Shown: positions 16,499 to 46,256 of the stretch, in pieces
How positions within the stretch are numbered: position 1 is the first letter of the stretch
Layout: each line of letters begins with the position of its first letter
Virus record (IMG/VR): IMGVR_UViG_2579779052_000002
From: a virus
Taxonomy: Duplodnaviria > Heunggongvirae > Uroviricota > Caudoviricetes
DNA length: 46,256 bases
Direction: 5' to 3' (one strand)
Notes under the pieces: generated by a model
Databases searched by the model: none
The model's input: only the letters and a program-made list of their open reading frames with translations
What the model was told of the DNA's origin: nothing
Made by a program: the position numbers and the translations under genes

Positions 16499-19080
16499 TT
16501 TCCGCCTCCTGCATCCCGCCCACGTTTTGCCGCCAGGGTCCAGGCTGATGAATGAGCTTCTCCGGGTTTATCTTCGGTCATACTGTTGCAGTGCCACAGC
16601 GAGCCCCCCCACGTCACCGTATCGCCGGGGTGGTAGGTTTCACCGGCTCTGAACACACCGCGGTAGAGCATCACCGGCAGGGAAAATGTTTTTTCCGTAC
16701 GCTGGCCACTGCTCTGCCGGACCACCACAGAGAACAACCGCTCACCCGTCATGCTGACGTCAATATCCGCCACCCCGTCAACCAGGCATTCCCATCCCCG
16801 CATCCCGTGCGTTTTTTCATACGCCCGCCAGAGTCCGCCCTGGTGTGTGGCATACGTGCCCCGGGGAAAGGATTTTTGATCGTCAATGGCGGGGAGTATT
16901 TCCAGAGCCGTGGCATCACGCCCGTCCTGCGGAGCCGGCAGGGCACTCACCGCATCCAGAACCGCCTTCTGCAGAACATCCGGATCGTAGTCACGACCAT
17001 CACGCGGAACATGAATATGGCTTACCGCCTCCTTCACCATCTGTTCAAGCATCGGACGCACATCATCCGGGGTGAGACTTTTACCGTCTGCCGGCTGCGG
17101 AATATTTGCGACCGCATCATTCACCGCCTTCTGCAGAACATCGGGATCATAGTCACGACCGTCGCGCGGAACAGGGATATGGCTTACAGCCTCCTTCACC
17201 ATCTGTTCAAGCATCGGACGCACATCATCCGGGGTGAGACTTTTACCGTCCGCCGGCTGCGGAATATTTGCGACCGCATCATTCACCGCCTTCTGCAGTA
17301 CTTCCGGATCGTAGTCACGACCATCACGCGGAACAGGGATATGGCTTACAGCCTCCTTCACCATCTGTTCAAGCATCGGACGCACATCATCCGGGGTGAG
17401 ACTTTTACCGTCCGCCGGCTGCGGAATATTTGCGACCGCATCATTCACCGCCTGCTGCAGTACATCCGGATCATAATCACGACCATCACGCGGTACCGGA
17501 ATGGCCCCCACAGCGTCATCCACCATCGCCTGCAGAACCGGACGCACCTCATCCACCGTCACATGCTTCTGTAATACCGCCGACAGGGAAGTCAGTTTCT
17601 CTTCAAACGCTTGTGCCTGCGAGGCCATCTTCCCCTCAAATGTGCGCTGTAAATCCGCCAGCACTGTGGAGAATTCTTCTCCCAGTGCACGAATAATGGA
17701 CAGTTCCCGTTCCGTCATTTTCTCAGTATCCCCCCTGAACATCGCTTTCACCGCATCATGCTCTGTTTCACTGATTGCCTTATTACCGTCAGATGCGCCG
17801 TCAGGCAGCTGTGATGAAACTGTTTTCCCGGCAGACGCGAACGGATCCTCACGGGCATCACGACGGGACAGCGCCTCCAGACTGTAGTTCTGCTGCTGAA
17901 GATACAGTGCATCACCGCCGGCCAGGGGCGGCAGGTTCTCCCGTTTACGGGCCTCATTGGGCGTGAGAAGCGTATTTTTCACCGCATCCCCCAGCGTTTT
18001 CATGCGCCGCTCACTGTCCATTCTCAGCAGCGTGGTGACATCAAATTCTGTACTCTCGTTTTCCCCCGTTTCCAGCGCCTCATCCAGTAACAGTTCAATG
18101 GACTCAATCAGCGTCTGCAGGCACTGGGAATAATACTGCTGCTCCAGCGCCTCCACGTTGTCACTGGAAGGCGGTTGTCCCACGCCAATCTTGTAGGCCG
18201 GGACACGGAACACCGAACAGACAATTTCAGCGGTCATCTTCAGTTGTTCCACCGTCTGCGCATCCACAGGTGAAAACGTCGTGGGGTTGTATTTTGCCCC
18301 GTTGCTCAGAATGGCCGTTTTCCCCGCATTTTCGCCTGTATACCCGCTGTCCCAGTTGCTCTTCAGTTTTTTCGCATTTTCTTCCGTAATACTGCCGGGG
18401 ATCTCAATCACCCCGGACGGCCTGCCGCCATTTCTGAAAAAAGACGTCGAATTTTCCTGAATATGATGCCCCTGCGTGGCCGCCAGCCCGGCGGCATACA
18501 CCGGCGGCAATCCTATAAGCGGATGAAAAAAACAGTTAAACCGGTCGTGGATCACTTCCCGGGCAGGCACCGTCACCGCCTCCGTGATCCCGCAGTTCCG
18601 GTCCGGCGTGATGCGGTAGAACACCTCGCCGTCATCCGCCACCAGAGGTTCAACCCGGCTCCAGTCCAGAATACGCAGTTCTTTGATCTGCCCCCGGGCA
18701 TTACGGATTTTCAGCACCACCGTATTGCCATGACGCAGTTTGGCGTTCAGCCACAGTTCAAAAAACTGGATGCGGTTCTGCTGGGCGTTGGGACGACGAC
18801 AGAGGCGGGCAATATCCCCCCGGCGCGTTTCCCTGCGTATCCCATGCGCATCCGTCTGCATAAGACGCAGCCGCATTTTGGCGATATCCTGGGATATCAG
18901 CGAAATACATGCAAACACCGCATGAAAGGAGAGGACGGCTTCAGGATCGGCTTTCACGCCCTGCTGCCAGGCGCCGGAAAAGGGCTCAGCCACCGCCTGA
19001 AACAGGCTGGTCCAGCCCGCCTCTCTTACGTCACGTCCTGATTTCTGGTTTTTTCGGGTTCGCCGTAAAAGGTTCCACAT
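16495..19080 (-). CDS. portal protein (HK97 family) with ~440-aa C-terminal extension containing tandem 54-aa repeats
   Basis: N-terminal ~420 aa contains portal-like motifs (RPSGVIEIPG, GENAGKTAILSNGAKYNP, EIVCSVFRVPAYKIG); C-terminal region has 4 copies of IPVPRDGRDYDPDVLQKAVNDAVANIPQPADGKSLTPDDVRPMLEQMVKEAVSH. Confidence 0.8.
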   Translation of the reverse strand: MWNLLRRTRKNQKSGRDVREAGWTSLFQAVAEPFSGAWQQGVKADPEAVLSFHAVFACISLISQDIAKMRLRLMQTDAHGIRRETRRGDIARLCRRPNAQQNRIQFFELWLNAKLRHGNTVVLKIRNARGQIKELRILDWSRVEPLVADDGEVFYRITPDRNCGITEAVTVPAREVIHDRFNCFFHPLIGLPPVYAAGLAATQGHHIQENSTSFFRNGGRPSGVIEIPGSITEENAKKLKSNWDSGYTGENAGKTAILSNGAKYNPTTFSPVDAQTVEQLKMTAEIVCSVFRVPAYKIGVGQPPSSDNVEALEQQYYSQCLQTLIESIELLLDEALETGENESTEFDVTTLLRMDSERRMKTLGDAVKNTLLTPNEARKRENLPPLAGGDALYLQQQNYSLEALSRRDAREDPFASAGKTVSSQLPDGASDGNKAISETEHDAVKAMFRGDTEKMTERELSIIRALGEEFSTVLADLQRTFEGKMASQAQAFEEKLTSLSAVLQKHVTVDEVRPVLQAMVDDAVGAIPVPRDGRDYDPDVLQQAVNDAVANIPQPADGKSLTPDDVRPMLEQMVKEAVSHIPVPRDGRDYDPEVLQKAVNDAVANIPQPADGKSLTPDDVRPMLEQMVKEAVSHIPVPRDGRDYDPDVLQKAVNDAVANIPQPADGKSLTPDDVRPMLEQMVKEAVSHIHVPRDGRDYDPDVLQKAVLDAVSALPAPQDGRDATALEILPAIDDQKSFPRGTYATHQGGLWRAYEKTHGMRGWECLVDGVADIDVSMTGERLFSVVVRQSSGQRTEKTFSLPVMLYRGVFRAGETYHPGDTVTWGGSLWHCNSMTEDKPGEAHSSAWTLAAKRGRDAGGGK
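16939..17586. repeat. 162-bp tandem direct repeat, ~4 copies, in-frame within portal gene
   Basis: Anchor AATATTTGCGACCGCATCATTCACCGCC recurs at 17101, 17263 and 17425 (period 162); flanking copies are degenerate. Confidence 0.9.
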
Positions 19081-19247
19081 TCGCCATGCTCCGCATCACG
19101 TTTCTTTTTCTGACCTGCCGGACGTCGCACCGTGATGTACTCCGCCTTTCCCAGGCGAACCAGCACCTCCGCACACGGCTGTGCCACATCACGGATATCC
19201 CCGGCCCGGGCATCATGCGTGCCCTGCAGATATCGGATCTTTGCCAT
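19026..19247 (-). CDS. hypothetical small protein (73 aa) between capsid and portal genes
   Basis: ATG-initiated ORF, weak RBS, overlaps portal start by ~55 nt; may not be expressed. Confidence 0.3.
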   Translation of the reverse strand: MAKIRYLQGTHDARAGDIRDVAQPCAEVLVRLGKAEYITVRRPAGQKKKRDAEHGECGTFYGEPEKTRNQDVT

Positions 19248-19291
19248 AACCTGTTACGGGAGGCGCACGCCTCCCGTCCTCCTTATCAGAC

Positions 19292-27909: not shown

Positions 27910-29790
27910 TTATGATGATGCTGGTGCATTTATCTCCAGCACCAGACTTTCTATCTCAACGCCATACGCTGCATTTTTGGTAATATCCGTCAGCGTCAGC
28001 GCATTCAGCCCCAGTGTCAGACTGTCTTTTATGACCTGGAATGCCGGGCCAGCCACTCCATTCAGTTTCGGAGTAACCGTGGCACTGCCGGCGGTGAACA
28101 CCAGCTCCAGCGTCTGCCAGTCGTTACTGTAATTCCCGAACTCGCCCAACTTTGTGTTTCCTGCTTTCTTGTGATGCATCAGATTCAGTTTGCCGTCTGT
28201 GGTCTGGGTGAAGAACGACATCAGGAACGGGTTACCAGTCCCGGTCATCGCCACGACGTCAGGTAACGCTACATCGGTATACAGATAAATTCCCAGACCG
28301 AACTGATTGTTGGTCAGTGCGCCTGACAGGCGGAACTTACAGGTCAGTCTGCCGCCCTGTGTCAGCAGGGTAATTGCGTCATCCACCGGATGCATCAGGG
28401 ACCAGGTTTTATTGCTCTGCTTGGTGATCTTAAATACACCATCTGACAACTGAATTCCGCCGTCCTTAATGGTCCAGCCCTGCGCAGCAGCATCTCCGGC
28501 TGTCGGCATCAGGGAGATTGTGCGTATGGATGCATCTTCAGACGGCCCCGATGGCGTGTTGCCGCCGGGCGAGGGTTTGATTTCCGGTGCCTTACCACTG
28601 ATGAAGGCTGAGGTGCGCCCGGCTGCGTTCAGAATAGCGGTTGCCAGACGATCCGGAATAATGCTCCTGCGCGCCCATGAACTGAAATGTGTCGGGCGGT
28701 TTGATGATACCTGGTTTCCATTCGTTCTCGATGCCGCACCGTAATATCCTGATGCCGGAATATCCGGATCTTCTGCCGGCGCGTTAGTGGCGGTATTGAC
28801 GCCGTTACCGTCTGTCATGAAGGGCACAAAATAAACGCCCTCACTCTCCCTGTTTTTATCCCCGCCGTACACGGTGTCGTACTGGGTAGCGTATGTATTT
28901 TTCCAGTAATACGTCGTGTCACCACAAATCCACGGCACATCTGCAGCACTGCCTCCATGACACTGCGTGTTAAACTCGGTAATGTCCGCACGAAACTGTT
29001 TCAGCATGGCCGCAAACAGCGGAGGTTGCTGTGAGTACGTAGCGGCGCTCATGTCAAATTCGCCCTGCATCCAGCATACGGCCAGCAGCATGTTTTTTGG
29101 GTTTTTCTGCAATGCGGCCTTCGTGCGCAAAATCAGGTCCTGATATAAAGGTTTACCCACACCCCAGCGAGCCGAATCCTGACTGGCTCCTGTGGACTCG
29201 CTGAATGTCCCCTCCGCGCCCTGGGTGAATGCCGAACCACCACGACAGCATGGAACCAGTAAAATCCCGGCATTCTGTGGAATGTAAGGCAACAGGCGTT
29301 TGGCAATATGCAAGCCCTGTCCGACACAGCCATACTGCCCTTTGCTCAGGTCTGCATTCGGGTGATTCAGTGCGCTCATATCCTGAACATCATGCAGGCA
29401 GTGATCTGCCGGAATGATGTCGTTAAATGCGCATGCTTTACCACCGGGAGTCACTGTGTTGCGACGGGCCAGTTGCTTAATGCGTGGGTGGGGCGCATCG
29501 TAAGAATCCGGCAGCGGCATTCCCTCACCATATGACATGGCATTGGATTGACCAGCAAGTACCACCACGTAATACCACTCCGGCACGCTGCCGTGCTGGG
29601 GGGAATCAGGTGAGATGTCTGTAGTGCCATCGGCCACCATTGCCTGCATTAGATACCACGGGGTGCCGGGTTCGTAGGCAACCCGCGTCTCCCCCTGAAG
29701 ATGCCACCCTTTCGCAAGATGTTCATTCACCTTTTGAGTCAGTTCAGCCTGTGTCATGGCTGTAATCAGTGCAAAGTTCTTACTGGTCAT
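27910..29790 (-). CDS. nanS-p: prophage-encoded sialate O-acetylesterase (NanS-p type; DUF1737 N-terminus + SGNH/SASA esterase + C-terminal lectin-like domain)
   Basis: 626 aa; VVLAGQSNAMSYG esterase motif; architecture and placement just upstream of the lysis cassette as in EHEC lambdoid prophages. Confidence 0.8.
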   Translation of the reverse strand: MTSKNFALITAMTQAELTQKVNEHLAKGWHLQGETRVAYEPGTPWYLMQAMVADGTTDISPDSPQHGSVPEWYYVVVLAGQSNAMSYGEGMPLPDSYDAPHPRIKQLARRNTVTPGGKACAFNDIIPADHCLHDVQDMSALNHPNADLSKGQYGCVGQGLHIAKRLLPYIPQNAGILLVPCCRGGSAFTQGAEGTFSESTGASQDSARWGVGKPLYQDLILRTKAALQKNPKNMLLAVCWMQGEFDMSAATYSQQPPLFAAMLKQFRADITEFNTQCHGGSAADVPWICGDTTYYWKNTYATQYDTVYGGDKNRESEGVYFVPFMTDGNGVNTATNAPAEDPDIPASGYYGAASRTNGNQVSSNRPTHFSSWARRSIIPDRLATAILNAAGRTSAFISGKAPEIKPSPGGNTPSGPSEDASIRTISLMPTAGDAAAQGWTIKDGGIQLSDGVFKITKQSNKTWSLMHPVDDAITLLTQGGRLTCKFRLSGALTNNQFGLGIYLYTDVALPDVVAMTGTGNPFLMSFFTQTTDGKLNLMHHKKAGNTKLGEFGNYSNDWQTLELVFTAGSATVTPKLNGVAGPAFQVIKDSLTLGLNALTLTDITKNAAYGVEIESLVLEINAPASS

Positions 29791-30098
29791 TGTGTTACTC
29801 CCGTCTGGTGTGTCAGTTCGGCTATTCTCTTATCCAGTTCAGCAATGGCCCGTTTATCCGCGTTACAGGTTTCCAGTGCATCCAGAAGGCGGTCGCCCCA
29901 TATTCCGAGGTTTCCCCATGTGGGTTGGTCAGGGAAGGGGGGAGGCGTTACCGGCATGGTCAGCGTCTGCGGTATAAGCCGGACTGACGGCGCTGGCCGT
30001 GGCGCGTTCTGCGTGCCTGCGCAACCTGTCAGTAAAACGAGCGTCAGGCAAAGCGTGGGCGCATTCATCTTTTGCAATATCGTTGCGTAGCTGTTCAC
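29787..30098 (-). CDS. lysC: o-spanin lipoprotein (P2 LysC-like), overlapping i-spanin
   Basis: Signal peptide plus lipobox (LTGC); starts inside the i-spanin gene in another frame and extends past it; stop overlaps nanS-p start. Confidence 0.65.
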   Translation of the reverse strand: MNSYATILQKMNAPTLCLTLVLLTGCAGTQNAPRPAPSVRLIPQTLTMPVTPPPFPDQPTWGNLGIWGDRLLDALETCNADKRAIAELDKRIAELTHQTGVTQ

Positions 30099-30336
30099 GT
30101 CTTACCTCTCCGTCCTGATTGCGTTGCTGATTGTCCGCGCGGAGTTGAGCCAGCACCTGCTGCATATCCTGTACCCCGGCGCTGATGATATTCAGTGTGT
30201 CGACGGTACTTTTCAGGGTGCTGGCCTGCGCTTCGTTTCTGGCGTTCTCCCGGCCCAGCGACCACGACAGACGCATGGATGTTCCCCATGCGGCAATCAG
30301 AAGGAAAGCGACGCCAAGCGTGGGCCAGAGCTTCAT
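29929..30336 (-). CDS. lysB: i-spanin (P2 LysB-like)
   Basis: Start chosen at ATG 30336 (MKLWPTLGVAFLLIAAWG..., N-terminal TM then coiled coil); ATGA-coupled to the endolysin gene. Confidence 0.65.
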   Translation of the reverse strand: MKLWPTLGVAFLLIAAWGTSMRLSWSLGRENARNEAQASTLKSTVDTLNIISAGVQDMQQVLAQLRADNQQRNQDGEVRREQLRNDIAKDECAHALPDARFTDRLRRHAERATASAVSPAYTADADHAGNASPLP

Positions 30337-30725
30337 GCCGGATAGGCTCCGTGTGGTAACTGAAAATGCGGTCCGTCTTTCAGGGTCTTCCAGTCGCCGC
30401 CCCATTCCACCGGAATATTCAGTTCCCGGCTGGCCTGTCTGAATGCTGCTGCGATTTTTTCGTACAGCGGCCATTCCCATGACACCTGGCTGCCAACATA
30501 AGCCACAACATCCACGGCATGCCCTGTGAGATGGCGACTGTTCATGGTCTGGCTCTTGCCTGTGGTCACGAGCTGCTTCTGACGATAACGACTGCGCAAT
30601 CCTTCGGTGATACCAAAATCCACTTCCGAGATTTCCAGCGCCCGTCGGGTCACTTTCACCAGATCAGGATTTACACCCTGCAAATTCTTTTCGCTTCGGC
30701 TGCTGAATTTAAATGTGTTGCTCAT
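30333..30725 (-). CDS. endolysin, L-alanyl-D-glutamate peptidase (M15 family)
   Basis: 130 aa with HLTGHAVDV zinc-binding-type motif; sits between holin and spanins. Confidence 0.7.
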   Translation of the reverse strand: MSNTFKFSSRSEKNLQGVNPDLVKVTRRALEISEVDFGITEGLRSRYRQKQLVTTGKSQTMNSRHLTGHAVDVVAYVGSQVSWEWPLYEKIAAAFRQASRELNIPVEWGGDWKTLKDGPHFQLPHGAYPA

Positions 30726-31045
30726 TCGTTCCTCTCCTTCACCCTGCGATCAAATATTGCAATAACCTTGTCGCGTGCTTTCTCTGCGCCCATAAAACCG
30801 ATTGAGGCACCAAAAAACGTCACTGCATCCTCAGGGATCCCGAAGAAGCGCAGCGACCCGGCCACGGCCATGGCAAGAACGCCGCACGCCAGCGATCCCG
30901 TTACGGTCTGAACCAGTGTTCGTCCGTCATAAAGACTCATCAGCGCGGAAATGCTGACAGCCGCGCCTACTGCATACACCGTTGGCAGGTGGTCAAAGAG
31001 CCACGCAATAACCTGCTCTGTGATCCCTGTTTGAATGGTGCTCAC
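30722..31045 (-). CDS. holin (P2 Y-like position)
   Basis: GTG start with GGGGGGAG RBS directly after X stop; 107 aa with hydrophobic segments. Confidence 0.6.
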   Translation of the reverse strand: MSTIQTGITEQVIAWLFDHLPTVYAVGAAVSISALMSLYDGRTLVQTVTGSLACGVLAMAVAGSLRFFGIPEDAVTFFGASIGFMGAEKARDKVIAIFDRRVKERNE

Positions 31046-31047
31046 TG

Positions 31048-31248
31048 CTACTCCCCCCACAACTGAATCATTTCTCGTTTCTTCTTCTCCGGCTCCGGCA
31101 TCTCCACTTCCTGCCCGGCGTCCAGAAATACCTGCTGACAGAGTCCGGGGTTGGCATCCAGCACCTTTTCGGTGACGCCCCGTGTCGTGCCGTAGTACCG
31201 GAAACAGAGCGAATCCACGGTGTCGCCTTCCAGTGCCTTCACTTTCAT
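31048..31248 (-). CDS. X: tail protein X (P2 gpX-like)
   Basis: MKVKALEGDTVDSLCFRYYGTTRGVTEKVLDANPGL... matches P2 gpX (MKTFALQGDTLDAICVRYYGRTEGVVETVLAANPGL...) as recalled. Confidence 0.8.
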   Translation of the reverse strand: MKVKALEGDTVDSLCFRYYGTTRGVTEKVLDANPGLCQQVFLDAGQEVEMPEPEKKKREMIQLWGE

Positions 31249-31742
31249 CAGCACAGCTCCGCAAACATTCGCGGTCGTCCCAGAATGTCAGAGATGGCCC
31301 AGCTCACATCGCGCCACAAATCCGATGTCTGTATATCCAGTGCGTCCGCCCGGCGGTCGCCCTTGTCCGTTGTGTCCGCATCGCGGTAACGCTCCAGAAT
31401 CAGGGCGCGTGTGGCGGTATAAACAGCATTGCGCCAGTGCCAGAGATTGACGCTTTCTCCGTTAATTACAGGGGCCGGAACATCGGCCAGCGTCTGATAG
31501 CCAGCCGCCTGTTGTTCCTGCTGCCATGCTTCCAGCTCGCGGGTAACGTGTGCTATGGCCCCGGTGGCGGTATGCAGCAGGCGGGAGGTGGTCACGCGGC
31601 CCGGCAGTCGTACCGCCAGACGCAGCTCACGCAGCACAATATCCGGCCAGAATGCACCCGCTGAAATGCGAGTGTCGCCATCATCGGTATCGGTGATGTC
31701 GTCCTCTGCGGGGCCGGGGTTAGTTCTGGCAACCATACTCAT
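31248..31742 (-). CDS. L: head completion / stabilisation protein (P2 gpL-like)
   Basis: Start chosen at ATG 31742 with AGGAG RBS; similarity to P2 gpL as recalled (EQFWPDV.../AVSEILG). Confidence 0.8.
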   Translation of the reverse strand: MSMVARTNPGPAEDDITDTDDGDTRISAGAFWPDIVLRELRLAVRLPGRVTTSRLLHTATGAIAHVTRELEAWQQEQQAAGYQTLADVPAPVINGESVNLWHWRNAVYTATRALILERYRDADTTDKGDRRADALDIQTSDLWRDVSWAISDILGRPRMFAELC

Positions 31743-31843
31743 GGGGTTCACTCCTGAAAAAATCGGGCGGTGGGTGCGCGGTGTAAACGGTCACGGAGTC
31801 AAACCGGAACACCGCGCACGCCGCCCGCTGACGGGGTCAGTCG

Positions 31844-32644
31844 TTAACCGCGCTTTGCCTTCTGCGTCGCGGTGGTTTTTCGTGTTGCAGGCTTCCGCGT
31901 TGTCTTTTTATTTTTGCTGCTTTCGTCCTGCGCCTGCTGTGCGCTGGCGTCTTCTGGTTCGGCTGCGGAATCGGCTTTTTTCAGGGCGCGGGAAAGGGTT
32001 GCAATCTCGCGTTTCACACCTGCGTTCGGGTTCAGGTGCATCGCTTCGCGCAGCAGCTTCAGTGAAGAGGCCATGTTGTCTGCATCGGTCAGGCCACGAC
32101 GGGCAAAGGCACACGCCTTGCATAATTTGGCGCGCACTTCGTCCGGAATGTCCTGGTTGGCGACAATTTCCCAAAGTGTGTCCAGTGGTTCGATAAAGGC
32201 GGATAAATCCGCGTCGGCATCCGTCCCAGCCTGCGTCAGTACCGGGTTGCAGATTTCTTCGGTCAGTACCGTGGCAGCAGTACGGCCAAAGTTATCCGGC
32301 ATGATGAGGTTGTGACGGACCACATATGCACCAATACGCAGCGCCAGCGGAAGATCGCCGCAGTCAATCGCCCACACCATCAGCGTGGCAATTACTTCGT
32401 CCTGTTGCCCGCCGTCAGCCTCCAGCGTTCCCTCAATCCAGCCGGAAAAGTCCGGCAACAACTCTTTTTTGATGGCGGCTTTCGCGCTTCTGGCCTGTAT
32501 GGCCTTTAGCCTGGCCTGTGCCAGACGCAGACGATACAGCACTTCTTCATGCGCGGTACACGCGGCGTGGTCCACACCTTCATTCGCCCGGCCTGCGCGC
32601 TGTGCCATCACGTTCTGCCAGTGTTGTTGTGCAGGAGTAATCAT
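31844..32644 (-). CDS. M: terminase endonuclease (small) subunit, P2 gpM-like
   Basis: 266 aa with GGAGAG RBS; position between N and L; basic C-terminal tail. Confidence 0.8.
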   Translation of the reverse strand: MITPAQQHWQNVMAQRAGRANEGVDHAACTAHEEVLYRLRLAQARLKAIQARSAKAAIKKELLPDFSGWIEGTLEADGGQQDEVIATLMVWAIDCGDLPLALRIGAYVVRHNLIMPDNFGRTAATVLTEEICNPVLTQAGTDADADLSAFIEPLDTLWEIVANQDIPDEVRAKLCKACAFARRGLTDADNMASSLKLLREAMHLNPNAGVKREIATLSRALKKADSAAEPEDASAQQAQDESSKNKKTTRKPATRKTTATQKAKRG

Positions 32645-32689
32645 TTTTTCTCTCCGTTACAGGCGGGCATGATGCCCGCCGTGAGTTGA

Positions 32690-33742
32690 TTAGCTGTCGG
32701 CGAACTTCAGGCCAGTGACCATCGCGCACTTGCCATAGTCTTCAACGACATAAGCGTCATTGATGGACTGGTAGGTGGCGATGCGGTTGTATTCCGGCTC
32801 GTCTTTCATCAGACGACGCATTGAACCTTTCTGCCAGTAAATCGACAGGTTGTTGAACGAGGTGATAAGCATCGTTGCATCCGGGAAGAACGGCGCAAGG
32901 AACACGCCCAGCCCGCCAATGGTGCGCGATGACAGGATGAGCTGCCCGGCAAGTAATTCCGCATTGGGATTCTGGCCGCTGATGCTGTTCAGCACGGGCA
33001 GACGCAGCGAGTTAAACAGGTTGCGCCCCATAATCACCACGAGGTCGTCAGCTTCCTTGTGCCATTCATCCAGCAGGGATGAGCGCGCATCCTGTACCAG
33101 AGCATCGGCATTCGCATACTTACCCGCGTGCGCCACAGTGTTGTCCATGTTGCGGGAGGTCAGCGTCACGTCATTCATTACGCGCTCGCTGGCATCGGTT
33201 CTGATGTGCTCCAGCCAGCCCACGTTAACGTCCTGAAGCAGCTTGTTGGTGTGAAAATCAGACTCGTAGGCGTGGGATGTGCCGTTAAAGCCAATCATGA
33301 TGCGATCAAGCGCTACCTGCCGGGCGATCTGTGTACTGATACGGGACTGAAAATCGCTGTGGGCCGCCCAGGTATCAAGCTGTGGGTACGAAATAAAGGT
33401 ATCGTAGTTCACCTGTTCGCACTGGTACTGACGAGACTTCATATCGATCACGTTATTCGGGTTACGGCGTTTGATGCCGTCATAACTGCTATTCGTGCGC
33501 GCAATTGGCCCGGTGGTGTCCAGGAGGATTTTTTCGCCTTTCTGGTCGGTCACGCCGATCACGTTAATTCTTTTCGTAAATTCGGTACTTTCCTTTGAGG
33601 CGTTTTCAAAACGCTGCTGCACCGCGGGTTCCACGGTAAATCGCGATACCAGTGCAGATACCGGGATATTGTTAAGCGACGCCTGCTGCGCCATATAGCA
33701 CCCCAGCTTGTTGCGGGTAATATCTGACATCACCAGATTCAT
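32690..33742 (-). CDS. N: major capsid protein, P2 gpN-like
   Basis: 350 aa; KFTVEP, INVIGVTDQKGEK, DLVVIMGRNLF segments align with P2 gpN as recalled; start could instead be ATG 33730. Confidence 0.85.
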   Translation of the reverse strand: MNLVMSDITRNKLGCYMAQQASLNNIPVSALVSRFTVEPAVQQRFENASKESTEFTKRINVIGVTDQKGEKILLDTTGPIARTNSSYDGIKRRNPNNVIDMKSRQYQCEQVNYDTFISYPQLDTWAAHSDFQSRISTQIARQVALDRIMIGFNGTSHAYESDFHTNKLLQDVNVGWLEHIRTDASERVMNDVTLTSRNMDNTVAHAGKYANADALVQDARSSLLDEWHKEADDLVVIMGRNLFNSLRLPVLNSISGQNPNAELLAGQLILSSRTIGGLGVFLAPFFPDATMLITSFNNLSIYWQKGSMRRLMKDEPEYNRIATYQSINDAYVVEDYGKCAMVTGLKFADS

Positions 33743-33765
33743 AAAAAATTTGCTCCTTTGTCTTA

Positions 33766-34602
33766 TCAGAAGTCAGCCAGCTGGTCGGAGGCTGCGCCCG
33801 TTGCGGTGAAGCGGTTCTGCGGATCGCCGTCCTGCGTGCGCAGTTTTTCCTTCAGTGCTGTCAGCTCTGTGGTCAGTGACGTGATTTTCTGGCGGTCCTG
33901 CTGATGGCGGGTTTCCAGCACATTAAAACGGTCGATAATGTCGGCCTGTGATGTTGCAACGCCTTCCACCGCTTCCTGAATACGGGAGAAACTGGCGTCA
34001 TCCGCTTTGCGGCCACGACCAATAATCCCCATTACGCGGTTAAACCACTGGGTGCCTTCTTCCTGGCGTTGTTCTGCCATTTCGATGATTTCAGACTCGA
34101 TGGCTTCGGAGATAAGCGGTGCTTCACCCTGGATACTGTTGAACGTCATCACCGCCTGACGCTGCTGTGCCGTGAATTTCAGGCGCTCAGTGCCCAGGCT
34201 TGCCGGGGTGTCGGTCATCGCCAGCCCGACCAGATAGGCACGCCCGTTAACGGAGAACTGCGGGTGCAGTTCGATACTGGAATAGATTTTCTTGCCGTCA
34301 GCGACAAGCTGCTTCATGCGCTCGGTCGGTTCGATTTCTGCATACAGCGCAGTACGTCCGGCCAGCGGGCCTTCCGTAATATCTTCCGTACTCAGCGCGG
34401 TGACATCGCCCATTGCGGAAAATTCGCTTGACGGGCATGGCGAGAGATAGTGCTCAACGTTCACGCGGGCAGCGTAAACATCCGGGTTGAAGTTCTCGGC
34501 GGCTTCACGCAGATGCACCGGACTGATTTCACGGCCATCAACAGTTGATCCGGAGACAGCCACGCGAAACTTTTTGCGGGATGTCTTTTTTTCATTAGCC
34601 AT
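33766..34602 (-). CDS. O: capsid scaffolding protein, P2 gpO-like
   Basis: Start chosen at ATG 34602 (MANEKKTSRKKFRVAVSGSTVDGREIS...), aligning with P2 gpO N-terminus as recalled. Confidence 0.85.
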   Translation of the reverse strand: MANEKKTSRKKFRVAVSGSTVDGREISPVHLREAAENFNPDVYAARVNVEHYLSPCPSSEFSAMGDVTALSTEDITEGPLAGRTALYAEIEPTERMKQLVADGKKIYSSIELHPQFSVNGRAYLVGLAMTDTPASLGTERLKFTAQQRQAVMTFNSIQGEAPLISEAIESEIIEMAEQRQEEGTQWFNRVMGIIGRGRKADDASFSRIQEAVEGVATSQADIIDRFNVLETRHQQDRQKITSLTTELTALKEKLRTQDGDPQNRFTATGAASDQLADF

Positions 34603-34756
34603 AGTTTTTGCCCCTCTGACTGGTTCTTCAGTCATGATGGCAAAGCGTAACAGGCTGATACAAAGGGATTTTGTTGTAAGAAAACGGCCAGAACAGGGGG
34701 TTAAGGAGAACAGTTTCGCGCGCGGGTAATCTTCCTGTAATTACTCAGGGGGAGCA

Positions 34757-36508
34757 ATGATTCAGGACGCTTTTGTGCGCCAGCGTGCGCGGCAACTTTA
34801 CTGGCAGGGTTATCCGCCCGCAGAAATATCACGTCTGATGGGAATAAACCCGAACACGATTTATGCGTGGAAAAAACGCGACCAGTGGGATGAAACGCCA
34901 CCCGTGCAGCGTGTCACGCAGTCCATCGATGCGCGCCTCATCCAGCTTACTGAAAAACAGAATAAAACAGGCGGTGACTTTAAGGAAATAGACCTGCTGA
35001 CCCGGCAGCTTAAAAAACTGCATGATGGCCAGCCGGATGCGACGGTCACAGGAAAGAAAGGCCGGGCGAAAAAACTCAAAAATCATTTCACGCCGGAACA
35101 GATTGCCGCACTGCGGGAAAAAATCATCAGCAGGCTGGAGTGGCATCAGCGGGGCTGGTTTGACTCCCTGACCCTTTGCAGGGAAGCCGGGATACGTAAC
35201 AGGATGATCCTGAAATCCCGACAGATTGGGGCGACCTGGTATTTTGCACAGGAAGCTCTGCTGATGGCGCTGCGTGACGATGTGGCGCAACCTTACCAGC
35301 GTAACCAGATTTTTTTGTCTGCGTCGCGTCGTCAGGCGTTCCAGTTTAAAAGCATTATTCAGAAGGCCGCGGCTGAAGTTGATGTGGAGCTGAAAGGGGG
35401 CGATAAAATCATCCTCTCCAACGGCGCAGAGCTGCATTTTCTCGGCACTTCTGCTGCGTCGGCACAGTCCTATACGGGCAATTTTTATTTTGATGAATTT
35501 TTCTGGGTCAGTCGCTTTGCTGAACTGCGCAAGGTGGCTGGCGCTATGGCAACCCTCAGCGGACTGCGGCGCACCTACTTCTCCACGCCATCCACCGAAA
35601 CGCACGAGGCATACGCCTACTGGAACGGCGACCGCTGGAACGAGAAAAAGGCCACGCATAAACGCCAGCGTTTTTCTGTGGACTGGAAAACTCTGCATAA
35701 CGGGCTTATCTGCCCTGACCGGACGTGGCGGCAAATTGTCACGCTGGAAGATGTGGTCAATCACGGCTGGAAACACACCGATATCGACGAAATTCGTGAT
35801 GAAAACACCGAAGACGAGTTCCTCAATCTCTATATGTGTGAGTTTGTCCGCGAAGGGGAATCGGCATTTAACCTGAATATCCTGATTGGCTGCGGTGTTG
35901 ACGGATACGACGACTGGAAAGACTGGAAACCTTTTGCTCCCCGCCCGATGGGGAATCGTCCGGTATGGATTGGGTATGACGCAAACGGCAGTAGTGGCAA
36001 CGGCGACAGCGGCGCTGTGTCCGTGGTGGTTCCTCCGGCTGTTCTTGGTGGCCGTTTTCGAACGGTGGAGACGCGACGCGTTCAGGGGCTGGAGTTTGAA
36101 GAACAGGCCAGAGTCATTGAAGAGTTCACGTATCGCTACAACGTGGAACACATCGGCATTGATGTGACGGGCGGGAACGGGGAGGCTGTTTATCAGATAG
36201 TGAAACGGTTTTTCCCTGCTGCTATTCCGTACACCTTCACGCTGTCATCAAAACGGTCGCTGGTACTGAAAATGCTGCAAATAATGCGTGCCGGGCGGTG
36301 GGAATACGATCGCGCCGAACGCGAGCTGGTCGCGGCCTTTAACGCCGTGCGTAAGGTGAAAACACCGGGCGGCTTTATCACTTACGAAACGGACCGCGCG
36401 AGGGGGATCAGCCACGGCGACCTTGCGTGGGCAACCATGCTTGCTGTCATTAACGAACCGATTGGCGGCGAAGGAGAAAACGAGCGTTTCACGGTTATGG
36501 AGTTCTGA
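34757..36508 (+). CDS. P: terminase ATPase (large) subunit, P2 gpP-like
   Basis: 583 aa with GGGGGAG RBS; divergent from O as in P2; ATPase-like region around KSRQIGATWYFA. Confidence 0.9.
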   Translation: MIQDAFVRQRARQLYWQGYPPAEISRLMGINPNTIYAWKKRDQWDETPPVQRVTQSIDARLIQLTEKQNKTGGDFKEIDLLTRQLKKLHDGQPDATVTGKKGRAKKLKNHFTPEQIAALREKIISRLEWHQRGWFDSLTLCREAGIRNRMILKSRQIGATWYFAQEALLMALRDDVAQPYQRNQIFLSASRRQAFQFKSIIQKAAAEVDVELKGGDKIILSNGAELHFLGTSAASAQSYTGNFYFDEFFWVSRFAELRKVAGAMATLSGLRRTYFSTPSTETHEAYAYWNGDRWNEKKATHKRQRFSVDWKTLHNGLICPDRTWRQIVTLEDVVNHGWKHTDIDEIRDENTEDEFLNLYMCEFVREGESAFNLNILIGCGVDGYDDWKDWKPFAPRPMGNRPVWIGYDANGSSGNGDSGAVSVVVPPAVLGGRFRTVETRRVQGLEFEEQARVIEEFTYRYNVEHIGIDVTGGNGEAVYQIVKRFFPAAIPYTFTLSSKRSLVLKMLQIMRAGRWEYDRAERELVAAFNAVRKVKTPGGFITYETDRARGISHGDLAWATMLAVINEPIGGEGENERFTVMEF

Positions 36509-37554
36509 TGAGCAGAAAAAATAAAAAAGTGCGCATGAGTTCACGCATTGATCTCGCTGATGCGCTCAGGAAAGAATCATCGCTCAGTGCATTCACATTT
36601 GATGGTCCTTATCGCCTGACCGGGCATGACCTGCTGGACAATATGTACTGTGCTGATAACGGACGGTGGTATGAAACCCCGGTGGACTGGTACGGTCTGG
36701 CAAGAGCAGCCCGGCAAACGTCCTGGCATCAGTCTGCGCTTTACTTTAAGCGCAATGTATTACTCGGTTGCTACATCCCGCACCCGCTGCTTTCCCGGCA
36801 GGATTTCTCGGCGCTGGCGCTGGACTGGTTTGTGTTCGGTAACGCATTCCTTGAGCTTAGAAGCAATATGCTCGGCGAACCGCTTAAATTACGGCACGCC
36901 CTGGCGAAATACATGCGACGCGGAAGCGATCTTGAATCATGGTGGTATGTGCAGGATGGCAAGGACGCGTTCCAGTTTCGCCCTGGCAAAGTGTGCCACC
37001 TGATGAATCCGGATATTAACCAGGAAATCTACGGCATGCCGGAATATCTTGGCGCATTACTCTCGGCCAGCCTTTCTCATTCGGCGGACATGTTCAGAAA
37101 ACTGTACTACGACAACGGATCCCACGCCGGGTGCATCATCTACATCGGTGCAGCGCAGGTAAACCGCGAAAGCATGGACTCCCTGAAAGAAACGTTACAG
37201 GGCGCGCGTGGTGGTGGTGCGTTTAAAAACGTACTCATCCATGCGCCCAACGGGGGCAAAGAAGGTGTGCAAATTTTGCCGTTCCAGCAGATCACTGCAA
37301 AGGATGAGTTCATGAATGTTAAGGCGGCATCCCGTGATGATGTGCTGGCTGCGCACCGCGTTCCGCCGCAACTGATGGGGGCGATGCCGGGCGAAAAAAG
37401 TGCGTTTGGTGATGTGGAGAAGGCCGCGCGGGTTTACGCAATTAACGAGCTGATGCCCGTCATGGAGGCCATGAAGCACATCAATGACTGGCTTGGCGAA
37501 GAGGTGATCCGCTTTAACCCTTACGCACTGCTAGATACCCAGCCCACATCCTGA
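36508..37554 (+). CDS. Q: portal protein, P2 gpQ-like
   Basis: 348 aa, start overlaps P stop (TGATG); P-Q order as in P2. Confidence 0.9.
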   Translation: MSRKNKKVRMSSRIDLADALRKESSLSAFTFDGPYRLTGHDLLDNMYCADNGRWYETPVDWYGLARAARQTSWHQSALYFKRNVLLGCYIPHPLLSRQDFSALALDWFVFGNAFLELRSNMLGEPLKLRHALAKYMRRGSDLESWWYVQDGKDAFQFRPGKVCHLMNPDINQEIYGMPEYLGALLSASLSHSADMFRKLYYDNGSHAGCIIYIGAAQVNRESMDSLKETLQGARGGGAFKNVLIHAPNGGKEGVQILPFQQITAKDEFMNVKAASRDDVLAAHRVPPQLMGAMPGEKSAFGDVEKAARVYAINELMPVMEAMKHINDWLGEEVIRFNPYALLDTQPTS

Positions 37555-38673: not shown

Positions 38674-38985
38674 TTACTCAGGAAATAACGCCCGGATATT
38701 CCCAGCCATCTGGCTGGTTATCTTAGCCACTGGTGCAGACTGTGCTTCAAACTTTTTTGAGCTGATTTGTGTCACAGGTAACATCTCATCATCAGCCCAT
38801 GCGGCCAGTCGGTAAGCCTCTGCCGGATTCGTCTTCAGAAGTGCCAGCCCGGCCAGAAAAGCCACGCGTTGGCCGCTTTTGCGGGCTTCTGGTGTAAGGC
38901 TGTCCAGCCAGGCGCATGCTTCTCCTTCGTTCTTGACGGCGGCGGGCTTCAGATAGAAACTTATCCGTCTGGTTGGTGTCGTCAT
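38674..38985 (-). CDS. parR: ParR/StbB-like centromere-binding protein
   Basis: Start chosen at ATG 38985 (MTTPTRRISFYLKPAA...KSGQRVAFLAGLALL), resembling plasmid R1 ParR N-terminal RHH region as recalled; directly downstream of parM. Confidence 0.6.
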   Translation of the reverse strand: MTTPTRRISFYLKPAAVKNEGEACAWLDSLTPEARKSGQRVAFLAGLALLKTNPAEAYRLAAWADDEMLPVTQISSKKFEAQSAPVAKITSQMAGNIRALFPE

Positions 38986-38989
38986 TGGT

Positions 38990-39949
38990 TTACTCCTTGT
39001 CCATTGCGTACAGCCCATTAACCAGAGCAAACTGTGGCACCCCGTCCGCGATGAAAGTCGCATTAACTCCGCAGGCTTCGCGGATAGCGGGTGCCACAAT
39101 CTCCGCCCCGCCACCGACAACCATCACCCGCCCGTAACCCGAAAAAACCGCCAGCGCGCGGATCACGCGTTGTTTCAGTGTTTCTTCCTTTTCACGAATA
39201 ACCGCCATCAGGCTGGCGTAATGCGCGTCATTGTGGATGTGCTGGCGCAGCCAGGCTTCATTATGGCGATGTTCGATAATGGTATTGGCGATGTGGTGAC
39301 TGGTGCGCATACCGTTAGTGGCCATCACCGACAGTACGGCATCGGCCATAAGAGAAACGCCTACGTGTGGATCGCAAAACACCTGGCTGATACCTGCCAG
39401 TTGCCCCTGAACCTTTGCCACATCCAGCGTGGTTCCGCCCAAATCCACAATCAGCAGGGATTCAAACGGACTCATGTCAGCCAGTGCTTTAAAGCCAGCC
39501 GGAATGGATTCAGGCATAACCCGTACGTTACGGATAGTGAATGCTTCGCCGTTCTGGTACTCCACCGGGCGCATGACGTTCGCTTTTTTGCGGTTGATGT
39601 TGGCCATGTCCGGCTGTGCGTTTGTGTCGAAATATTCGCTCAGTGGCAGGGTAACAACCACATCCACTTCCTGTGGCGTGATGTCTGATTTGACCAGCGC
39701 GTGATGAATGGCAATGACATTCACATCGCTGTACTGGTATTGCGTGTCGGTCGTCTGGACAAAGCGATCGCTGACCGGATCAAAACCATAGCGCACGCCA
39801 TCAAGCATGTAGTTAGCAGGCTGCGAGCCACCGAACGGCGCAGACCATTCCGACTTGAAGCTGTTCGGGCTGATGGCGTTGCGGCGTTCGCCGTTCTCAG
39901 TCCATGCCAGCTTGATGTTGGTGGAGCCGTCGTCGATGTAAATTTTCAT
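38990..39949 (-). CDS. parM: ParM/StbA-like actin-fold partition ATPase
   Basis: 319 aa; motifs IDDGSTNIK, MPESIPAG, LIVDLGGTTLDV, VMVVGGGAE match actin-like ParM (R1 StbA) as recalled; AAGGAAAA RBS. Confidence 0.8.
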   Translation of the reverse strand: MKIYIDDGSTNIKLAWTENGERRNAISPNSFKSEWSAPFGGSQPANYMLDGVRYGFDPVSDRFVQTTDTQYQYSDVNVIAIHHALVKSDITPQEVDVVVTLPLSEYFDTNAQPDMANINRKKANVMRPVEYQNGEAFTIRNVRVMPESIPAGFKALADMSPFESLLIVDLGGTTLDVAKVQGQLAGISQVFCDPHVGVSLMADAVLSVMATNGMRTSHHIANTIIEHRHNEAWLRQHIHNDAHYASLMAVIREKEETLKQRVIRALAVFSGYGRVMVVGGGAEIVAPAIREACGVNATFIADGVPQFALVNGLYAMDKE

Positions 39950-45893: not shown

Positions 45894-46256
45894 GGTGATG
45901 CTGCCAACTTACTGATTTAGTGTATGATGGTGTTTTTGAGGTGCTCCAGTGGCTTCTGTTTCTATCAGCTGTCCCTCCTGTTCAGCTACTGACGGGGTGG
46001 TGCGTAACGGCAAAAGCACTGCCGGACATCAGCGCTATCTCTGCTCTCACTGCCGTAAAACATGGCAACTGCAGTTCACTTACACCGCTTCTCAACCCGG
46101 TACGCACCAGAAAATCATTGATATGGCCATGAATGGCGTTGGATGCCGGGCAACCGCCCGCATTATGGGCGTTGGCCTCAACACGATTTTCCGCCATTTA
46201 AAAAACTCAGGCCGCAGTCGGTAACCTCGCGCATACAGCCGGGCAGTGACGTCATC
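45894..46256 (+). mobile_element. IS1 insertion sequence, left end and insA (continues beyond window)
   Basis: GGTGATGCTGCCAACTTACTGATTTAGTGTATGATGGTG matches IS1 left inverted repeat as recalled, followed by insA. Confidence 0.9.
45949..46224 (+). CDS. insA: IS1 transposase InsA
   Basis: 91 aa, [91 protein letters not shown]. Confidence 0.95.

Follow-up and report, generated by a model that had tools for sequence, protein, structure and literature searches.

The esterase gene and its borders

The Escherichia coli prophage DNA of IMG/VR record IMGVR_UViG_2579779052_000002, referred to here as the window, comprises the whole of the 46,256-bp short-read draft contig JJLU01000060.1 of strain 1-250-04_S3_C1 (GCA_000627435.1). 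A gene coding for a NanS-p-type sialate O-acetylesterase is located where P2-type phage genes give way to lambdoid ones. The esterase open reading frame (ORF), uninterrupted and on the minus strand (29790 to 27910), codes for 626 amino acids. The gene, its parts and its immediate borders are as follows, the single-nucleotide polymorphism (SNP) comparison being described in the next section:

27910-29790, minus strand: NanS-p-type sialate O-acetylesterase ORF, 626 amino acids (WP_032288205.1/EZJ86410.1), from the ORF list, Pfam, PDB matches and an exact protein match
29587-29790, minus strand: N-terminal DUF1737 domain and linker, amino acids 1-68, P2-like-phage variant, from PF08410 and the loss of lambdoid DNA homology
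28627-29586, minus strand: SASA/SGNH catalytic domain, amino acids 69-388, with GQSN, WMQGEFD and RPTH, from the 3PT5 alignment and motif conservation
28858-28860, minus strand: private Y311D codon, with C at 28860 in the window and A in both parental types, from allele comparison
28090-28329, no strand: crossover interval, 240 bp identical to both parental types, from a three-way SNP comparison
27925-28503, minus strand: C-terminal lectin-like domain, DUF6645, amino acids 430-622, from PF20350 and PDB 6YP6
29787-30047, minus strand: lysC, P2-type and Rz1-like, its stop overlapping the esterase ATG (ATGA), from PF23793 and sequence
27799-27827, minus strand: intrinsic-terminator-like hairpin with a 12-bp stem and U-run, separating the esterase stop from the S holin start, from folding
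27544-27759, minus strand: P21-type S holin, first gene of the lambdoid half, from Pfam and 99% identity to lambdoid prophages of complete genomes

Three Pfam domains score above their curated cut-offs in the encoded protein, namely DUF1737 (PF08410; amino acids 4-53, 28.7 bits), SASA (PF03629; amino acids 75-271, E = 2e-11) and DUF6645 (PF20350; amino acids 476-586, E = 3.5e-19). The E. coli chromosomal NanS/YjhS (PDB 3PT5) aligns to amino acids 69-388 (E = 5e-120) and the NanS-p C-terminal domain (PDB 6YP6) to amino acids 430-622 (E = 1e-29). The SGNH blocks GQSN, WMQGEFD and RPTHFSS are all present and are kept in 71 of 71 relatives; RPTH is a variant of block IV that was earlier described for the NanS-p of phage 86 (PMC10462455), and is shared with that protein. 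Judged by its domains and motifs, the ORF is predicted to code for an intact NanS-p-family sialate O-acetylesterase and is an ordinary member of this known family, which agrees with the identification made in a first-pass annotation of the window from its letters alone. That annotation also considered that the esterase motif might be mutated; all three blocks are intact, and a private Y311D substitution lies outside them. The tyrosine at this site is invariant in the 71 relatives and is also found in NanS. A second private base occurs at 28780, and both 28780 and 28860 fall where esterase paralogues differ, such that the two changes could be real mutations or consensus errors from mixed reads.

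The three-domain architecture, the SGNH blocks and a position in the late region of a prophage are all features of NanS-p proteins. The canonical slot of their genes, between Q/stx (or Q) and the S holin under pR'/Q control, is not the one occupied here: lysC lies upstream, and the S holin downstream probably owes its place to a misjoin. The neighbours are lysC and the S holin, and neither a Q antiterminator nor stx adjoins the esterase or occurs among the annotated genes of the window, as the first-pass annotation had noted for the adjacent genes.

The native slot and the mosaic allele

Between positions 27928 and 45894 the window matches a P88-like prophage of SCU-105 with 99.95% identity (nine mismatches in 17,967 bp), and four of the nine mismatches, at 27934-28089, are of lambdoid type. 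In SCU-105 the esterase gene lies between lysC and the tail gene R, with only 23 nt separating it from R. The junction of lysB/lysC with the esterase was found in 376 of 5,426 complete E. coli genomes and that of the esterase with gpR in 375, while the 206-nt region coding for the N-terminal domain is also present in 376 complete genomes and, among the matches listed, is always located at lysC. The carriers of this P2-borne esterase include O26:H11 11368, O103 and O104:H4 2009EL-2050. One of the 376 genomes has the lysC junction without the gpR junction at a coverage of at least 80%, and may hold a truncated or rearranged copy. The upstream half of the lysC-to-gpR slot is seen in the window itself, in the ATGA overlap; the downstream half is seen in the 375-376 complete genomes and is not on this contig.

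A divergent P2-like lineage (L112-L115) carries a 656-amino-acid esterase in the same lysC-to-R slot (e.g. L113, 3501-5471). This lineage has a gpR gene with 70% DNA identity and an endolysin of another type, and its esterase has an N-terminal domain 52% identical to that of the window and a C-terminal domain of a different type. By inspection, the latter domain appears nearer to the 6YP6 (phi24B) type. The L113 locus had no near match in the phage collection. The 376 genomes, the match to SCU-105 and the occupation of the same slot in a divergent lineage together argue that P88-like (P2-family, Peduoviridae) prophages are the native home of the esterase allele and that its P2 placement is widespread. 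The late operon of P88-like phages (Xuanwuvirus, P2-family) is shared with the window in its order, Q P / O N M L X holin endolysin lysB lysC, at 97-100% DNA identity. Phage P88 and most of its relatives in the phage collection differ in that their lysC leads straight to R without an esterase, with homology ending at window position 29843.

Comparison with lambdoid alleles reveals a mosaic gene. DNA homology between the window gene and lambdoid alleles breaks off at 29584, precisely where the SASA domain begins, and the flank is regained only downstream of 27928. Within this span the alleles are patchy, with 73-100% identity; the SASA and C-terminal parts are 80-100% identical in DNA to lambdoid alleles, and across ~1.65 kb some P2-borne alleles match lambdoid ones at 99%. 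The N-terminal domains of the P2 and lambdoid types, by contrast, are only ~25% identical in protein sequence, and the window variant has a four-residue insertion in the loop preceding the conserved LMQA motif. Among the matches listed, this DUF1737 variant is specific to P2-like contexts. Over ~28636-28935 the allele of the window and SCU-105 is 98-100% identical to the lambdoid alleles L027, L020, L035 and L018, and only 73-89% identical to the P2-borne L005 (comparison region 28439-28935). This pattern is taken as a sign that P2-borne and lambdoid-borne copies have undergone gene conversion with each other in the past.

The switch between the two parental types was localised by the three-way SNP comparison. 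The window follows the lambdoid SNPs at 27925-27934, 27969, 28000 and 28089, and the P2-type (SCU-105/L005) SNPs from 28330 upward. The intervening 240-bp exact core sits inside ~400 bp of ~99% identity between P2 and lambdoid alleles. The esterase of the window is, by this comparison, a chimera of ~1.5-1.7 kb of the P2 allele with ~0.2-0.4 kb of a lambdoid allele at its 3' end, and the exact chimeric protein is recorded on one contig only. What appears anomalous is the lambdoid DNA downstream, the switch lying inside the last ~200-450 nt of the gene.

Origin of the P2-lambdoid junction

The order lysC-esterase-S holin at a single locus was found in none of the 5,426 complete genomes for the window allele, and was likewise absent for a second hybrid allele. 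IMG/VR is built largely from draft and metagenome assemblies, and there the picture is different. Among its 26 loci with a P2-type 5' end, 16 lead to gpR, three lead to a lambdoid S holin and seven are on contigs that end inside the gene. The three hybrids each represent a different allele, one being derived from a metagenome, and their frequency among the resolved IMG/VR loci (3/19) differs from that in complete genomes (0/376; Fisher p = 9.5e-5). One hybrid contig ends 613 bp past the esterase gene, at the divergence point of lambdoid variants. All 13 members listed for the protein cluster besides the query and the representative are labelled 'partial', and ON470599.1 is a bacterial draft contig, with the chromosomal genes focA, pflB and dmsABC, which ends inside the esterase gene. 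The GenBank 'phage' records ON470599.1 (L085; vB_EcoM-569R5) and ON470623.1 (vB_EcoM-705R2), both labelled 'partial genome', match identically.

The breakpoint thus falls within sequence identical in both source loci, in a junction that is absent from finished genomes and recurs in draft assemblies. Since independent hybrids have recurred in unfinished assemblies alone, each time within the near-identical tract, the junction probably arose in short-read assembly, when two distinct prophages of strain 1-250-04_S3_C1 were misjoined. The fuller account, in which a native P88-like late-operon esterase has been misjoined inside the shared tract, is also considered likely, and the P2/lambda juxtaposition is probably not a biological feature. 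Several properties are shared with known repeat-induced chimeric contigs: the exact repeat at the breakpoint probably exceeds the read length of a short-read assembly, a large number of sister contigs end within the same gene, and hybrids are confined to draft and metagenome data. The contig itself stops 362 bp into an IS1 element on the right and ends in tail-fibre assembly sequence on the left, both ends being repeats typical of a repeat-bounded short-read assembly. It differs from such cases in that the chimera is deduced here from the assembled sequence.

A number of observations weigh against a misjoin, which is itself argued from population statistics. The two alleles share ~400 bp at ~99% identity, easily enough for RecA-dependent recombination, and P2-borne alleles, including those of complete genomes, hold internal patches identical to lambdoid alleles, so real exchange between the two gene copies happens in nature. 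The contig passes cleanly through the gene, as expected if the strain has a single (hybrid) copy. The record further states 'samples_with_this_contig 3' and UniRef100 gives n=4 for the protein; these entries could mean that the junction was reproduced in independent assemblies, although the UniRef100 count is ambiguous, since UniRef100 also merges fragments. With regard to the gene itself, Y311D could impair the predicted esterase activity.

The shared homology, the internal patches, the clean passage through the gene and the two database entries would also fit a real junction, formed by homologous recombination between the esterase copies of a resident P88-like prophage and a non-Shiga toxin (Stx) lambdoid prophage, through inversion or, if the copies were in direct orientation, deletion. 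Such an event is possible but unlikely here. Its product would be a defective hybrid with a P2 early, head and lysis half and a lambdoid lysis, head and tail half, in which the esterase would still belong to the P2 late operon while the lambdoid late genes would be severed from pR'/Q and placed behind an intrinsic terminator. The presence of IS1 in the prophage, which may therefore be decaying, and the single complete genome of the 376 with a lysC junction and no gpR junction fit with this explanation. Set against it are the absence of the hybrid from all 5,426 complete genomes and its occurrence in three of 19 draft or metagenome loci and in the window, each time as a different allele. Deletion would have removed cysT and pgsA if the prophage site is the same as in SCU-105, and both genes are essential. 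Inversion would leave two repeat copies, so that the clean read-through would be equally unexplained. If the junction were real, the P2 late transcript would meet the hairpin at 27799-27827 before reaching the S holin. This hairpin has a predicted stability of -17 kcal/mol (z = -4.0), which was equalled by none of 200 shuffled sequences, and in lambdoid prophages its passage would need Q-modified polymerase. The lambdoid late genes would then be silent, there being no Q on the contig.

The first-pass annotation proposed instead that a lambdoid prophage of the enterohaemorrhagic E. coli type had kept its NanS-p moron while Q/stx and everything upstream were exchanged for a P2-like module, bringing the esterase newly under P2 late promoters. 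The position of the gene between P2-type and lambdoid genes, with no Q/stx adjoining, is what this would produce. The allele itself contradicts it, as the first ~1.5-1.7 kb of the gene is a P2-prophage allele native to the slot between lysC and gpR. From 28330 to the gene start the sequence is 100% identical to SCU-105 save for 28780 and 28860 and only 50-90% identical to lambdoid alleles, the N-terminal domain occurs only in the lysC context among the matches listed, and the P2 slot is ancestral and widely occupied (376 genomes and the divergent lineage). A replacement of this kind is thus very improbable. The closest lambdoid relative matches the window at 98-99% over 17001-29584. Upstream of its own esterase, this non-Stx prophage carries Q, a methyltransferase gene, two tRNA genes and iraM. 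Its Q lies ~3.4 kb upstream of that esterase, and Q sequences are therefore likely to turn up after reassembly.

The remaining genes of the two halves are as follows:

29929-30336, minus strand: P2-type lysB (DUF2570), from Pfam, with the same order annotated in SCU-105
30333-30725, minus strand: M15 endolysin, from Pfam, with the same order annotated in SCU-105
30722-31045, minus strand: P2-type holin, from Pfam, with the same order annotated in SCU-105
31048-37554: P2-type head and packaging genes X, L, M, N and O (minus strand) and P and Q (plus strand, divergent), from Pfam and SCU-105 synteny
45895-46256, plus strand: partial IS1 (InsA; PF03811 and PF12759, Zn-ribbon plus helix-turn-helix), SCU-105 homology stopping at 45894
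27195-27539, minus strand: DUF1327/YdfR of the lambdoid half, from Pfam and 99% identity to lambdoid prophages of complete genomes

Beyond P and Q, the P2-like half encodes ParM/StbB partition proteins, the replication protein A and a repressor. In the P2-like prophage, the ParM (StbA) and StbB-type plasmid partition genes (38674-39949, minus strand) lie between its gene A and its cos/portal end, and are also present in SCU-105 and vB_EcoM-569R5. By comparison with SCU-105, IS1 interrupts a gene annotated 'membrane protein' beside the P88-like repressor gene. In the lambdoid half, the S holin and DUF1327 genes are followed by those for a lysozyme, Rz, a TonB_C protein, an HNH protein, terminase, a protease-capsid fusion, tail proteins, Lom and a tail fibre (ending near 136). 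The TonB_C-domain ORF (24543-24869, minus strand) is small and lipoprotein-like, with Rz on one side and the HNH/terminase genes on the other. A natural P2-lambda hybrid phage, viable and with the esterase gene as its module boundary, was rejected on this gene content and is exceedingly improbable: four different hybrid contigs exist, but the contig has two head gene sets and two lysis cassettes and no P2 tail genes, ogr or Q antiterminator gene, and such a phage is absent from 50,697 phage records and all complete genomes.

Probable late expression and the place of the esterase among NanS-p proteins

In its native slot the esterase gene sits between lysC and the tail-completion gene R, apparently without room for a promoter or terminator of its own. 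Transcription of R and S has to pass through the gene, which is therefore presumably part of the late operon, co-transcribed from O to S, and its product would then be released at lysis. The expression from P2-type late promoters suggested in the first-pass annotation is plausible, the gene lying behind P2-type late genes; it would not be a new arrangement, as the P2 slot is ancestral. A scan for Ogr-type late-promoter dyads (TGT-N12-ACA) gave seven matches against 11 expected by chance, with none in the O/P intergenic region, and was uninformative, so that the late-operon assignment rests on synteny. A sigma-70 promoter scan gave nothing above chance. The ogr gene itself lies on the prophage half missing from the contig, as shown by comparison with SCU-105. 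The switch to lambdoid genes downstream would reflect the misjoin in the 240-bp tract rather than module replacement.

Proteins of the NanS-p family de-O-acetylate Neu5,9Ac2 and mucin sialic acids, bind carbohydrate through a C-terminal jelly-roll domain, and are made on induction and released by lysis (PMC8065619, PMC10462455). By homology, the P2-borne esterase may similarly take 9-O-acetyl groups off sialic acids, making Neu5Ac usable. Lambdoid and Stx phage examples given in these sources include z1466/933Wp42 of 933W and vb_24B_21/gp84 of phi24B (Saile et al. 2016, 2018; Franke et al. 2020, as cited in PMC8065619 and PMC10462455). The P2-borne protein resembles them in its three-domain architecture, its SGNH blocks, a C-terminal domain homologous to 6YP6 and its encoding by a late-expressed phage gene beside a lysis cassette. 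It differs in its DUF1737 variant, in the position of its gene after a P2-type lysC and before gpR, whereas the lambdoid genes lie between Q/stx and S, and in a probable P2 late control of the Ogr type in place of Q antitermination. The chromosomal NanS/YjhS shares the catalytic domain, which aligns over 320 residues with all motif residues kept, but is a single-domain protein of the nan regulon without DUF1737 or a lectin-like C-terminal domain.

The N-terminal domain may have a function of its own. DUF1737 of phi24B gp84 has been described as a capsid-decoration domain that docks on the capsid (2026 preprint, 10.64898/2026.04.10.717836). That P2-like phages of two divergent lineages keep a distinct DUF1737 variant, even as other parts of the protein are shuffled with lambdoid copies, gives rise to the speculative suggestion that the P2-type variant has a head-specific role in docking on the P2-type capsid; linkage to the upstream flank alone could account for the association just as well. 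The N-terminal 69 amino acids gave only coiled-coil noise against PDB sequences, with no solved structure matching, and a PHROGs search returned only families of unknown function. In the most far-reaching form of this idea, the P2-family esterase would be a late-operon virion-associated protein and not a mere lysogen-fitness moron, with DUF1737 as a head adaptor matched to the P2-type capsid and a SASA and lectin cassette freely exchanged with lambdoid phages, making the gene a recombination bridge between unrelated phage families of which the window junction would be one real product. This combination is doubtful.

As multi-copy mosaic repeats, the nanS-p paralogues break or misjoin short-read assemblies, and hybrid prophages or re-regulated modules deduced from draft contigs at nanS-p are not trustworthy without read-level support. 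The searchable literature treats NanS-p only for lambdoid and Stx phages, with none of it linking nanS to P2-like prophages, and searches for 'P2-like' with 'O-acetylesterase' or for strain 1-250-04_S3_C1 returned no match there. The context of the esterase is nonetheless common in genomes, though not discussed in that literature: a NanS-p gene within a P2-family late operon is present in ~7% of complete E. coli genomes, among them those of the O104:H4 and O26:H11 lineages. The P2-type DUF1737 variant, together with the capsid docking of the phi24B protein, offers a testable idea of why this domain would track the phage type while the catalytic cassette shuffles.

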